Sequence record: NC_019505.1
Source of the DNA: Escherichia phage wV7
Direction: 5' to 3' (one strand)
DNA length: 64,000 bases
Of this stretch, positions 37,195 to 38,215 are shown in pieces. Numbering within the stretch: position 1 is the stretch's first letter; each line of letters begins with the position of its first letter. The notes below the pieces were generated by a model. That model had not been told where the DNA came from, did no database searches, and saw only the letters and a list, made by a program, of their open reading frames with translations. A program made the translations under genes and the position numbers.

Positions 37195-37270
37195 TGGTCG
37201 AGGCAGTAGGGATCGAACCTACGACCTAGGACTTAGAAGGTCCTTGCTCTTCCTTCTGAGCTATGCCCCG
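37195..37270 (-). tRNA. tRNA-Arg (anticodon UCU), CCA encoded
   Basis: Hand-folded cloverleaf: acceptor CGGGGCA/TGCCTCG, anticodon loop CTTCTAA, T-loop TTCGATC. Confidence 0.8.
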
Positions 37271-37274
37271 TAAT

Positions 37275-37350
37275 TGGGGTGACCGATGGGAGTCGAACCC
37301 ATGACTACGAGAATCACAATCTCGAGTTCTACCAACTGAACTACGGTCAC
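37275..37350 (-). tRNA. tRNA-His (anticodon GUG), CCA encoded
   Basis: Acceptor GTGACCG/CGGTCAC, anticodon stem CGAGA/TCTCG with loop TTGTGAT, discriminator C; no encoded G-1. Confidence 0.7.
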
Positions 37351-37464
37351 ATTAATACCTACTCCAACAATCAAGATGTCTTCACACGAAATTAAGAGAA
37401 GAGTGATCAGTTCAACCCCTATAATCGCGTCAAGTAGATATTAATGTGACAGTTGTCACAAATT

Positions 37465-37539
37465 TGGCGGACGTGATAGGATTCGAACCTATAACCAATC
37501 GCTTAACAGGCGATCGCTCTGCCATTGAGCTACACATCC
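37465..37539 (-). tRNA. tRNA-Asn (anticodon GUU), CCA encoded
   Basis: Acceptor GGATGTG/CACGTCC (one G-U), anticodon loop CTGTTAA, T-loop TTCGAAT. Confidence 0.75.
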
Positions 37540-37543
37540 AAAT

Positions 37544-37630
37544 TGGTGGGGAGTGGTGGAGTCGAACCACCCGAGTCGCAATGACAATGAATTTACAGTC
37601 CACACCGCTACCTCTACGGGATAACTCCCC
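37544..37630 (-). tRNA. tRNA-Tyr (anticodon GUA), long variable arm, CCA encoded
   Basis: Acceptor GGGGAGT/ACTCCCC, anticodon loop CTGTAAA, variable-arm hairpin GTC-ATTGC-GAC, T-loop TTCGACT. Confidence 0.7.
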
Positions 37631-37642
37631 TAATTCATAATT

Positions 37643-37717
37643 TGGTGGCCCTGGGTGGAATTGAACCACCATCTGGCGATTATGAGTCGCTTGCTTGAAC
37701 CTTCCAGCTACAGGGCC
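37643..37717 (-). tRNA. tRNA with CAU anticodon (Met, or Ile by T4 analogy), CCA encoded
   Basis: Acceptor GGCCCTG/CAGGGCC, anticodon loop CTCATAA, T-loop TTCAATT. Confidence 0.75.
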
Positions 37718-37718
37718 T

Positions 37719-37794
37719 TGGTGCTGATTGACGGAATCGAACCGCCGACCTTCTCATTACAAGTGAGTTGCTCTACCTACTGAGCTAAATCAGC
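37719..37794 (-). tRNA. tRNA-Thr (anticodon UGU), CCA encoded
   Basis: Acceptor GCTGATT/AATCAGC, anticodon loop CTTGTAA, T-loop TTCGATT. Confidence 0.8.
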
Positions 37795-37799
37795 AAAAC

Positions 37800-37889
37800 T
37801 GGCGGAGGTGATAGGATTCGAACCTATGAATCGCCGGAGCGACTGCCGGTTTTCAAGACCGGTGCATTCAACCACTCTGCCACACCTCC
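37800..37889 (-). tRNA. tRNA-Ser (anticodon UGA), long variable arm, CCA encoded
   Basis: Acceptor GGAGGTG/CACCTCC, anticodon loop CTTGAAA, long variable arm, T-loop TTCGAAT. Confidence 0.8.
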
Positions 37890-37891
37890 AG

Positions 37892-37965
37892 TCTCCATAC
37901 AAGGATTTGAACCTTGGACCTCCTGATCCCAAATCAGGCGCTCTACCAAACTGAGCTACACGGAG
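37892..37965 (-). tRNA. tRNA-Pro (anticodon UGG), CCA not encoded
   Basis: Acceptor CTCCGTG/TATGGAG (two G-U), anticodon loop TTTGGGA, T-loop TTCAAAT; followed by CT then next tRNA. Confidence 0.75.
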
Positions 37966-37975
37966 TAAATTAAAT

Positions 37976-38049
37976 TGGAGCGGATAATGAGAATCGAACT
38001 CACATCATCAGATTGGAAGTCTGAGGTAATACCATTATACGATATCCGC
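37976..38049 (-). tRNA. tRNA-Gly (anticodon UCC), CCA encoded
   Basis: Acceptor GCGGATA/TATCCGC, anticodon stem TCAGA/TCTGA with loop CTTCCAA, T-loop TTCGATT. Confidence 0.75.
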
Positions 38050-38054
38050 AAATT

Positions 38055-38141
38055 TGGTGCGAGAAGTGGGACTCGAACCCACAAGGAAATCATTCCGCAG
38101 CATTTTAAGTGCTGTGCCTTTACCAATTTGACCATTCTCGC
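38055..38141 (-). tRNA. tRNA-Leu (anticodon UAA), long variable arm, CCA encoded
   Basis: Acceptor GCGAGAA/TTCTCGC, anticodon stem CAGCA/TGCTG with loop CTTAAAA, T-loop TTCGAGT. Confidence 0.8.
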
Positions 38142-38142
38142 G

Positions 38143-38215
38143 CTGGGAATAAAGGACTCGAACCTTTGCATCTAGCAGTCAAAGTGCTATGCCTTACCAA
38201 CTTGGCTAATTCCCA
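38143..38215 (-). tRNA. tRNA-Gln (anticodon UUG), CCA not encoded
   Basis: Acceptor TGGGAAT/ATTCCCA, anticodon stem TAGCA/TGCTA with loop CTTTGAC, T-loop TTCGAGT; abuts tRNA-Leu. Confidence 0.8.

Follow-up and report, generated by a model that had tools for sequence, protein, structure and literature searches.

The eleven tRNA genes of Escherichia phage wV7 represent, with a probability that we estimate at about 0.88, the tRNA operon of Tequatrovirus (T-even phages) in a version that is already public, a reading that includes its mosaic origin, its processing, and a role in supplying and buffering tRNAs. The analysis covered a stretch of 64,000 nucleotides (sequence record NC_019505.1; referred to as the window), which matches E. 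coli O157 typing phage 7 (KP869105.1) at 100% identity. The first-pass annotation had implied that the cluster is novel; however, the same 11 genes are all annotated in KP869105.1, Tyr and Asn were described for T2L in 2008 (Brok-Volchanskaya et al, PMC2330249), and Tyr has been published for T6 (PMC13096335). The cluster itself is already known, its genes being annotated in hundreds of Tequatrovirus genomes, and the His-bearing version was found in ∼196 phage records at an identity of at least 95%. The three mentions of tRNA in the main text of the typing-phage genome paper (PMC4429339) concern groups 1 and 3, not the present cluster. The sole unusual part is tRNA-His, which has a conserved folded leader and no encoded G at position −1 (G-1). 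As such, the cluster adds nothing new; it illustrates two current ideas, tRNA sets that track codon demand and buffering against tRNA-cleaving defences, whereas the His cassette is a modest lead.

All of the 11 tRNA genes that ARAGORN called lie on the minus strand, at exactly 37195-38215, and the anticodon previously assigned by hand was returned in 11 of 11 cases. The genes are, in the order of transcription (Gln, Leu, Gly, Pro, Ser, Thr, CAU, Tyr, Asn, His, Arg):

38142-38215, minus strand: tRNA-Gln (UUG), without encoded CCA, abutting tRNA-Leu; ARAGORN and Rfam (66 bits)
38055-38141, minus strand: tRNA-Leu (UAA), CCA encoded; ARAGORN and Rfam (59.3 bits)
37976-38049, minus strand: tRNA-Gly (UCC), CCA encoded; ARAGORN and Rfam (65.8 bits)
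37891-37965, minus strand: tRNA-Pro (UGG), without encoded CCA, 1-2 nt from tRNA-Ser; ARAGORN and Rfam (66.8 bits)
37800-37889, minus strand: tRNA-Ser (UGA), class II, CCA encoded; ARAGORN and Rfam (63.7 bits)
37719-37794, minus strand: tRNA-Thr (UGU), CCA encoded; ARAGORN and Rfam (72.9 bits)
37643-37717, minus strand: tRNA with CAU anticodon, T2-type allele, CCA encoded; ARAGORN and Rfam (59.9 bits)
37544-37630, minus strand: tRNA-Tyr (GUA), class II, weak D and anticodon stems, CCA encoded; ARAGORN only, sub-threshold in Rfam
37465-37539, minus strand: tRNA-Asn (GUU), CCA encoded; ARAGORN and Rfam (74.1 bits)
37275-37350, minus strand: tRNA-His (GUG), C73 and CCA encoded, U at −1; ARAGORN and Rfam (67 bits)
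37195-37270, minus strand: tRNA-Arg (UCU), T2-type allele with C1-G72, CCA encoded; ARAGORN and Rfam (66.1 bits)

Ten of the 11 genes pass the Rfam model RF00005 at its gathering score (59-74 bits, E of 1e-10 to 1e-14). The exception is tRNA-Tyr, which gave only a 30.9-bit match to the tRNA-Sec clan, under the gathering score, and the minimum-energy fold of which is not a cloverleaf; its identity to E. coli tyrU is 58/90. The first-pass annotation had staked its reading on software calling Tyr, Asn, and His; ARAGORN calls all three, but Rfam/Infernal does not pass Tyr. Inspection of the 3′ ends confirmed that a CCA is encoded in nine genes and missing only from Gln (ending in G-C, followed by the +1 of Leu) and Pro (ending in A-CU, followed by the +1 of Ser). 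The genes are indeed tightly packed, the spacers measuring 0, 5, 10, 1, 5, 1, 12, 4, 114, and 4 nt in the order of transcription, that is, 0-12 nt save for the gap of 114 nt between Asn and His, which had previously gone unmentioned.

The array sits between the e.5-e.8/rnaC-rnaD block and trna.2-4/57B/57A/gene 1, with all of which it shares the strand. These flanks are 94-98% identical to the T4 locus and in the same order (blastn), and phrog matches were obtained for the homologues of trna.2 and trna.3. The elements accompanying the tRNA genes are:

38285-38312, minus strand: T4 middle-promoter-like site (MotA box ATGCTTTA, 12-nt spacer, −10 element TATTAT), ∼70 nt upstream of tRNA-Gln
38224-38249, minus strand: 11-bp leader hairpin (RNAfold), ending 8 nt before the +1 of tRNA-Gln
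36826-37176, minus strand: 116-aa ORF between tRNA-Arg and rnaD, part of the T2-type module
36712-36826, minus strand: homologue of rnaD (T4 stable "species 2" RNA), 98.3% identical to T4 rnaD over 116 nt
36567-36705, minus strand: homologue of rnaC (T4 stable "species 1" RNA), 98.6% identical to T4 over 139 nt
36493-36516, minus strand: intrinsic-terminator-like hairpin (10 bp, 7 of them G-C, followed by a T run)

The promoter-like site was the only one detected by a regex scan in 36300-39300 (eight on the minus and five on the plus strand of the whole window), based on the consensus of T4 middle promoters. The region of the hairpin ahead of tRNA-Gln is ∼94% identical to T4, and the hairpin may act as a processing signal. 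For the 116-aa ORF, a match to phrog_3355 was found (E = 7e-52), and a Pfam search gave no match. The rnaC homologue carries a tRNA-like T arm, CCGGGTTCGAATCCCGG, and folding of the T4 rnaC sequence yielded z = −4.6. The terminator-like hairpin lies within a block 97.7% identical to T4 and is probably where the transcription unit of the tRNAs and stable RNAs ends. The 11 tRNAs, the 116-aa ORF, rnaD, and rnaC are probably co-transcribed off the minus strand, from upstream promoters that would include the middle-promoter-like site to the terminator at 36493-36516. Host RNase P would generate the 5′ ends of the tRNAs, endonucleases and 3′ exonucleases would trim the spacers, and Gln and Pro, having no encoded CCA, would be completed by RNase BN and the CCA-adding enzyme. 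Work by McClain, Seidman, Abelson, and Deutscher in the 1970s-80s on the orthologous T4 genes reportedly described dimeric Gln-Leu and Pro-Ser precursors and the involvement of RNase P, RNase BN, and the host cca enzyme. Of the host's modification enzymes, Tgt (queuosine) would act on the Tyr, Asn, and His tRNAs.

The CAU tRNA had been left as Met or Ile. The anticodon was confirmed, but, judged from its sequence, the molecule is most likely tRNA-Ile2, not Met, and would read AUA after lysidine modification by host TilS. Its gene resembles E. coli ileX/ileY, more so than elongator or initiator tRNA-Met, and in 12 of 12 rows sampled across a ranking of 5430 E. coli matches the counterpart was annotated as tRNA-Ile (76-87% identity), an annotation shared by the best matches (76-82%). 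The anticodon arm, AGCGA-CUCAUAA-UCGCC, nearly matches that of E. coli ileY, GGCGA-CUCAUAA-UCGCU. The acceptor stem, GGCCCUG/CAGGGCC, contains C4-G69 and C5-G68, both of which Ikeuchi et al. are said to have identified in 2005 as TilS determinants. AUA codons are 2.2-fold enriched in the phage, Met stands at 0.99-fold, and the gene is identical (75/75) to a T2 gene annotated as "Met, CAU probably modified".

To what extent the set tracks codon demand was assessed by comparing 83 ORFs of the window with 39 average and nine highly expressed E. coli genes. The codons CAA, UUA, GGA, CCA, UCA, ACA, AUA, and AGA are each 2.0- to 3.6-fold enriched in the phage, UAU 2.1-fold, and AAU 2.45-fold. Among over-used amino acids, Asn (1.49-fold) and Tyr (1.45-fold) rank second and third; first is Lys (1.89-fold), for which the array contains no tRNA. 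His residues are at 0.74-fold the host average, with the codons CAU at 0.98-fold and CAC at 0.41-fold. The comparison of the anticodon set with codon usage, which had been suggested as a check, thus came out in agreement for 10 of the 11 genes, whereas His fits worst. The array would accordingly provide additional tRNA for those codons on which the AT-rich phage relies 2-3.6 times more than its host does, and the same added supply may buffer the infection where host defences eliminate certain tRNAs.

That such buffering is the main purpose is possible, though we put it at somewhat below even odds: the extra tRNAs (Tyr, Asn, and His), perhaps the whole array, would be kept mainly as a counter-defence, replacing or out-numbering host tRNAs cut by nucleases of the anticodon or variable loop, such as Septu, retron-Eco7, PARIS, or colicin-E5-like toxins, and the matching of codons would come second. 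The additions make up three of the four GUN/queuosine tRNAs (Tyr, His, Asn, and Asp), which form the target set of colicin E5, and codon demand does not explain His. The phage tRNA-Tyr is identical (87/87) to that of T6, which is expressed and the dosage of which decides escape from Septu: its over-expression rescues T6, deletion of the T6 tRNA region sensitises the phage, and T4, which has no Tyr, cannot escape (Chihara et al, 2026, PMC13096335). However, Septu also cleaves the phage tRNA-Tyr (PMC13096335), so tRNA-Tyr is not a resistant variant. Moreover, escape of T6 requires SegB-driven amplification (PMC13096335), and, unlike in T6, there is no segB beside Tyr at the present locus. The AriB nuclease of PARIS cleaves host tRNA-Lys, Thr(UGU), and Asn(GUU), with His(GUG) and Pro(UGG) as minor targets, and the T5 versions of its target tRNAs rescue infection; the target motif is UAAUC|C, and U39 is critical in the cleavage of tRNA-Lys (PMC12409363). 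At the positions relevant to AriB, the phage tRNAs differ, Asn having G39 (anticodon stem U36-A-A-G39-C-G, compared with UAAUC|C in the host) and Thr having G40. A nuclease targeting mainly tRNA-His was not found in the literature search. Because Tyr and Asn are predicted just as well by codon and amino-acid demand, the two models are inseparable for both of these genes.

Returning to the operon reading, its unusual part is the 114-nt spacer and the tRNA-His that follows it. The spacer (37351-37464) folds at −32.7 kcal/mol (z = −4.4) and contains two structured elements:

37445-37460, minus strand: 6-bp hairpin UGUGAC-AACU-GUCACA at the 5′ margin of the gap between Asn and His (RNAfold)
37351-37445, minus strand: 95-nt structured leader of tRNA-His (predicted fold and covariation)

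The TGTCACA half of the former is kept in Karamvirus and Gelderlandvirus homologues. The leader has a closing helix of 14 predicted pairs, the last base of which is the U at −1 of tRNA-His; it is predicted to enclose a long arm and a 4-bp arm with the 7-nt loop UCNUGAU. Its homologues are always located directly 5′ of tRNA-His in Jiaodavirus, Karamvirus, Gelderlandvirus, and Mosugukvirus. In their alignment, 96% of the cells were paired, compared with 34-50% in slid controls, and double changes occurred in eight pairs, compared with 3.3 in shuffles. A covariance model of the leader (R1) matched the window once (106 bits) and did not match T4, T2, or T6. Backed by covariation, the leader adjoining tRNA-His is a conserved structured RNA and appears to be undescribed. 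Among the Rfam covariance models, none gave a match centred on 37351-37464 at an E of 5 or better.

Other identities of the spacer were considered and rejected. It is not a degenerate or intron-bearing tRNA, as ARAGORN and Rfam were both empty there, and not a homologue of rnaC or rnaD, to which it showed no similarity (blastn, word size 7). It has no ATG, which speaks against a coding sequence; no sigma-70 promoter lies inside on the minus strand (the sole overlapping match is on the plus strand), and neither a terminator nor a T4 middle or late promoter motif was found. The "tRNA-Gln" listed for spacer matches in Klebsiella phages is the gene lying upstream, which these matches overlap by 2 nt at the edge. 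The notion that the leader hairpin is specific to His was weakened by the fact that other long spacers in the arrays of Jiaodavirus, Karamvirus, and Gelderlandvirus are also closed; these closed inter-tRNA spacers end 0-3 nt before the next tRNA.

The tRNA-His itself has the GUG anticodon and C73 of the bacterial type but lacks an encoded G-1, the position being occupied by U; E. coli hisR has G at −1. In bacteria, this G is the usual hallmark of histidine tRNAs; it pairs with C73 and is left in place by RNase P. A pattern scan of IMG/VR for tRNA-His also caught tRNA-Asn and others, and the matches were therefore filtered on the anticodon and C73. U-1 was present in 20 of 20 genes of the phage lineage, compared with G-1 in 57 of 57 bacterial-type genes among the IMG/VR matches. 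The U-1 lineage spans T4-like genera, one Vequintavirinae phage, Aeromonas phages, and mycobacteriophages, and it is absent from T4, T2, and T6, which have no tRNA-His. GUG, C73, CCA, and the four stems are kept in all 20 phages, from at least nine genera, and compensatory changes occur in every stem, which indicates selection for tRNA structure. In the enterobacterial T4-like phages, the covarying leader helix is predicted to pair U-1 and to abut G+1; in four IMG/VR phages, a single U separates His from the previous tRNA, and there is no hairpin. When G-1 is missing, E. coli HisRS charges the tRNA more than 100-fold less well (PMC5499578, citing Himeno, 1989, and Connolly, 2004). A phage lineage of tRNA-His with U-1 appears to be undescribed; the literature search found no phage tRNA-His without G-1, which is a weak negative, older subscription papers being outside its reach.

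That the leader and His form a cassette for a phage-specific way of making histidine tRNA is a speculative proposal, which we regard as rather improbable. It could take three forms: the leader might redirect 5′ processing, with the −1 nucleotide being retained; host HisRS might use the phage tRNA-His without the canonical identity element; or the tRNA might act uncharged, as a decoy or sponge. If a tRNA-His lineage did work without an encoded G-1, this would touch a near-universal rule of histidine tRNA identity, and coliphage, E. coli HisRS, and RNase P would provide a simple test system.

Still less probable, and in our view very unlikely indeed, is that some members of the array are non-functional, Tyr being a decaying pseudogene and His unchargeable by host HisRS, so that nine or ten genes contribute. 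Tyr falls under the Rfam threshold, has a non-cloverleaf fold, and is flagged as pseudo or undetermined by some annotators. For His, the U-1 predicts the drop in charging mentioned above, and Salmonella phage STP4-a keeps the leader but has its His gene deleted after 5 nt. On the other hand, the identical Tyr of T6 is not only expressed but biologically active (PMC13096335), and the retention of stems, anticodon, C73, and CCA of His in all 20 phages is unlike a dead gene. Points against the main operon reading itself are the sub-threshold score of Tyr, the T6 version of which has been called relatively unstable (PMC13096335), a His that lacks G-1 and is off codon demand, the lack of tRNA-Lys, and the dispensability of the region in T4.

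Compared with other T-even phages, the array is a recombinational mosaic: Gln to Thr make up a 5′ half that is T4-like, CAU, Tyr, Asn, Arg, and the 116-aa ORF form a 3′ module of the T2 type, and the 114-nt spacer and tRNA-His constitute an inserted cassette. The T4 cluster (NC_000866, 71173-72530, with rnaC, rnaD, and segB) occupies the same slot on the same strand between the same flanking genes. It comprises, as had been stated, eight tRNAs (Gln, Leu, Gly, Pro, Ser, Thr, Ile, and Arg), with segB between Ile and Arg. Compared with this set, the present array thus has Tyr, Asn, and His in addition, as had also been claimed. The order Gln-Leu-Gly-Pro-Ser-Thr-CAU...Arg-rnaD-rnaC is common to both. 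Gln (73/73), Leu (87/87), Gly (74/74), and Pro (74/74) are base-for-base identical to T4; Ser matches T4 in 82/87 positions, with paired changes, and T2 in 85/90; Thr matches T4 in 73/76 and T6 in 69/76, and T2 has no Thr. The rnaC and rnaD genes are ∼98% identical to those of T4, and Gln and Pro lack the CCA in both phages, whereas Ser and the CAU tRNA have it encoded in the present array but not in T4. The present array has no segB and instead contains Tyr, Asn, the leader, and His, and the 116-aa ORF between Arg and rnaD is absent in T4, where rnaD directly follows Arg. The view of the T4 set as the base of the array has to be amended, as the CAU and Arg genes are not those of T4 but T2-type alleles, unrelated to T4 Ile (47/77) and T4/T6 Arg (48/79), respectively; the sequence breaks from T4 after nt 12 of the CAU gene. 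In T2 (MH751506), by contrast, CAU (75/75), Tyr (86/87), Asn (75/75), and Arg (74/76) match, segB is likewise missing, and a 351-nt CDS annotated "similar to RB69ORF150c; RB51ORF141" takes the position of the 116-aa ORF. T2 has nine tRNAs, an ORF (trna.1) in place of Thr, and no leader and His cassette; as its Asn is followed by Arg after 4 nt, the spacer and His constitute an insertion. T6 (MH550421) has Gln, Leu, Gly, Thr, a T4-type CAU, Tyr (at the same locus), segB, and a T4-type Arg, and lacks Pro, Ser, Asn, and His. The ∼510 extra bases in the relatives JY01, Sf21, and Sf22 are not an insertion within the array but an additional ORF upstream of tRNA-Gln. The best matches to the 3′ module in the E. 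coli collection are ∼110-kb plasmids with an Asn-Tyr-Thr array (78% identity), which share a distant common Tyr gene.

Such a patchwork might also arise if the variable 3′ half were a by-product of selfish DNA traffic: SegB-like homing endonucleases would cut in tRNA genes and drive gene conversion, adjacent cassettes would spread or vanish, and the set would have little adaptive meaning. The presence of two unrelated alleles of both Arg(UCU) and the CAU tRNA at one locus and the break from T4 within the CAU gene fit this notion, as does the fact that segB of T4 and T6 is located exactly at the slot of Tyr-Asn-His or Asn-His in the present phage. Furthermore, the preferred cleavage site of SegB is in the tRNA-Asn gene of T2L, the Asn gene here being identical to that of T2; SegB homing erases ∼1250 bp, among them Met, Tyr, Asn, and Arg, and T4 can grow without its tRNA region (PMC2330249). 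Nevertheless, we consider this account clearly unlikely, because, in several genera, the genes remain intact and show compensatory changes in their stems, which argues for selection on function, because the set matches codon demand, because ∼196 independent isolates carry the His version, and because an experimental benefit is known for Tyr (PMC13096335).

Beyond the T-even phages, Jiaodavirus Roth01/JD18, Karamvirus, Gelderlandvirus, and Mosugukvirus PM2 have the cassette in common with the present operon, the leader being 77-87% and His 79-97% identical. In the other T4-like genera, the upstream neighbour is Gln (Asn here), and the arrays are larger, containing Lys, Asp, Trp, and Glu. The interior of some of these leaders is shortened or replaced; in Kanagawavirus, only the closing stem and a tetraloop are left. 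Within the operon itself, the closest counterparts of the leader are rnaC and rnaD: all three are non-tRNA segments of one transcription unit, which tRNA processing would release. They differ in that rnaC and rnaD have no sequence similarity to the leader and are both separately present at 36567-36826. Once released, the 95-nt leader could join rnaC and rnaD as a third stable small RNA of the operon in T-even phages, and, together with the similar closed inter-tRNA spacers of related phages, it may help to explain why T4 makes stable RNAs from its tRNA operon, a long-standing puzzle.

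Across the 64-kb window, ARAGORN called eleven tRNA genes and no more, all on the minus strand at 37195-38215, in the transcription order Gln(UUG), Leu(UAA), Gly(UCC), Pro(UGG), Ser(UGA), Thr(UGU), a CAU tRNA, Tyr(GUA), Asn(GUU), His(GUG) and Arg(UCU). All eleven genes and isotypes proposed by the first-pass annotation were thereby recovered. The general tRNA model of Rfam passed 10 of the 11 (59-74 bits); tRNA-Tyr stayed below the gathering score (a tRNA-clan match of 30.9 bits only), and its lowest-energy fold differs from a cloverleaf. Thus, Tyr, Asn and His, claimed as additions to the T4 set, were all called by ARAGORN, but Tyr was not by the Rfam model. 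As had also been claimed, an encoded CCA, present in nine genes, is absent only from the 3′ ends of Gln and Pro as read from the sequence. Spacers between genes measure 0-12 nt, with the Asn-His gap (114 nt) as the sole exception. T4 carries eight tRNAs, as the first-pass annotation stated; they occupy the same locus, which makes Tyr, Asn and His extra relative to T4. Because gene calls, 3′ ends and spacers all agree with it, the initial observation was correct throughout.

The cluster is nevertheless already known and annotated: it is a T2-type-plus-His form of the T-even tRNA operon, and as such of low interest. Window positions 37100-38400 are 100% identical to KP869105.1 87793-89093 (E. 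coli O157 typing phage 7, a Tequatrovirus), the annotation of which holds the identical set of eleven tRNAs. Matches to the 1.3-kb query with a coverage of 80% or more were found in 324 phage records, and the Asn-His spacer alone in 196 at no less than 95% identity. The Tyr and Asn tRNAs of T2L were described in 2008 (PMC2330249). Signals and structured RNAs in and around the array are as follows.

Features of the tRNA locus (window coordinates; strand where assigned)
38285-38312: T4 middle-promoter-like site, upstream of tRNA-Gln
Upstream of tRNA-Gln: 11-bp leader hairpin
37351-37445: 95-nt core of the leader preceding tRNA-His; homologues 77-87% identical in Jiaoda-, Karam-, Gelderland- and Mosugukvirus
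36712-36826 (-): rnaD homologue, 98% identical to T4 rnaD (stable species 2 RNA), after a 116-aa ORF
36567-36705 (-): rnaC homologue, 98% identical to T4 rnaC (stable species 1 RNA)
36493-36516: terminator-like hairpin, downstream of rnaD/rnaC

Two exact T4 late-promoter motifs (TATAAATA) were also present, one upstream of the array inside the trna.2 homologue (38554-38561 (-)), the other directly past the terminator (36479-36486 (-)). Between the e.8 homologue and rnaC lies a 157-aa ORF (35965-36438 (-); phrog_2280, no Pfam match), in the place of which T4 has non-coding DNA alone, about 285 nt. The T arm of the rnaC homologue (36567-36705 (-)) is tRNA-like and perfect (CCGGGTTCGAATCCCGG), its acceptor-like closing stem imperfect; part of the 79% identical counterpart in a Karamvirus array (L004:1858-1996) was called a 95-nt tRNA-Met(CAU) by ARAGORN. 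The rnaC RNA may be derived from a tRNA and carry a large insertion.

The CAU gene is labeled Met by both ARAGORN and GenBank. However, its E. coli matches were tRNA-Ile in all 12 rows sampled across a ranking of 5430 records (76-87% identity), it carries the pairs C4-G69 and C5-G68, its anticodon arm nearly equals that of ileY, and in the phage ORFs AUA is enriched 2.2-fold while Met usage is unchanged. Together, these features argue for an Ile tRNA reading AUA, most likely tRNA-Ile2 with a predicted lysidine, which would make it equivalent in function to that of T4.

For the codon comparison, 83 window ORFs (17,834 codons) were set against 39 average and 9 highly expressed E. coli K-12 genes. 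The A-ending codons read by the eight T4-type anticodons are 2.0-3.6 times commoner in the phage. Among over-used amino acids, Asn (1.49-fold) and Tyr (1.45-fold) rank second and third, AAU and UAU being enriched 2.45- and 2.1-fold. His is the exception (residues 0.74 times the host average; CAU 0.98-fold, CAC 0.41-fold). The comparison with host codon usage, proposed together with the first-pass annotation, thus fits phage demand for the eight T4-type anticodons, Asn and Tyr, but not for His. The tRNA-Tyr gene is identical in sequence to that of T6, the topic of a 2026 study on Septu defense, in which T6 with the tRNA region deleted became sensitized and T4, lacking Tyr, failed to escape (PMC13096335). 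Host tRNA-Lys, Thr(UGU) and Asn(GUU) are cut by the PARIS nuclease AriB, for which His and Pro are minor substrates, and cutting of tRNA-Lys depends critically on U39 (PMC12409363). At the positions concerned, the phage tRNAs have G39 (Asn) and G40 (Thr), which might confer resistance to AriB. Codon supply and buffering against tRNA loss are mutually compatible, and for Tyr and Asn inseparable on these data.

The 114-nt Asn-His spacer folds with -32.7 kcal/mol (z = -4.4 versus shuffles), and homologues of its leader lie directly 5′ of tRNA-His in every case. In an eight-sequence alignment, 96% of cells were paired (34-50% in slid controls), and eight pairs had changed on both sides compared with 3.3 in shuffles, none of 500 of which reached eight. 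The closing helix takes in the U at position -1 of tRNA-His (an A-U pair, 8/8) and hence abuts G+1. The Kanagawavirus leader is shorter, a closing stem with a tetraloop cap, and other phages have differing interiors. A leader covariance model gave a single match in the window (106 bits) and none at the T4, T2 and T6 loci. That the structure is specific for His is tempered by two facts: related arrays contain further long spacers between tRNAs that are likewise closed and end beside the next tRNA, and in some large phages a single U separates His from the preceding tRNA. In Salmonella phage STP4-a (L005:1507-1630), the leader is whole while tRNA-His is gone beyond its first 5 nt (GTGGT...), with tRNA-Asn 30 nt on; the leader is thus able to persist without His. 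The Asn-to-Asp spacers (~250 nt) of a Jiaodavirus (L003:856-1108) and the Karamvirus array (L004:754-996) fold extremely strongly (-82.6 and -67.0 kcal/mol) into self-closed structures that end 0-2 nt 5′ of tRNA-Asp, and bear no annotation or a tiny hypothetical CDS; they are candidates for additional structured RNAs. A second conserved element, ~120 nt long and absent from the window, separates tRNA-Gln from the His leader (L004:1389-1510, L006:1389-1510, L005:1323-1430; Karamvirus and Gelderlandvirus 95% identical).

Position -1 is U in the phage tRNA-His and G in E. coli hisR. U-1 together with C73 was found in 11/11 phage genes (nine genera plus Aeromonas phages and a mycobacteriophage) and in all nine IMG/VR loci (100-225 kb for the seven with a listed length), whereas the same scan gave G-1 in 57/57 bacterial-type genes. 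Compensatory changes in all four stems indicate that the phage tRNA is maintained. No description of a phage tRNA-His without G-1 was found in the literature searched. The window gene (37275-37350 (-)) has A4-U69, and only two records match it at 99% identity or more; most Tequatrovirus relatives are one base off (98.7%), apparently with G4·U69, as in locus L009 and other genera. U69 is invariant across the phage lineage; E. coli has G4-C69. That leader and tRNA-His together represent an unusual solution to tRNA-His maturation or identity, with the leader perhaps adding one more stable RNA to the operon, is conceivable but rather unlikely.

In T4, the genes identical to those found here are processed via dimeric precursors by RNase P, RNase BN and the host CCA-adding enzyme, and by analogy the short spacers and two CCA-less genes would fit such processing. 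In T4, CCA is not encoded by Gln, Pro, Ser or Ile, four genes in all, whereas here Ser (37800-37889 (-)) and the CAU tRNA (37643-37717 (-)) encode it; dependence on host CCA repair thus varies among close relatives. E. coli plasmids of ~110 kb also bear an Asn-Tyr-Thr(-Ser) tRNA array (pEC881_2, about 109 kb; L014:1154-1400), the Tyr region of which, ~78% identical to that of the phage, was the best match among the E. coli genome collection.

T4 has identical Gln, Leu, Gly and Pro genes and similar Thr (73/76) and Ser (82/87) genes; its tRNA-Ile matches the CAU tRNA at 47/77 positions, with the first 12 nt alone in common, and its Arg is unrelated to the Arg(UCU) found here (48/79). T2, in contrast, matches at CAU (75/75), Arg (74/76), Tyr (86/87) and Asn (75/75), and also holds the 116-aa ORF found 3′ of Arg. 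The homing endonuclease gene segB lies within the interval in T4 and T6 and is missing here. As Asn and Arg are only 4 nt apart in T2, the 114-nt spacer and tRNA-His constitute an insertion relative to that phage. Judged by sequence, the array is a mosaic of a T4-like half, a T2-type module and a His insertion.
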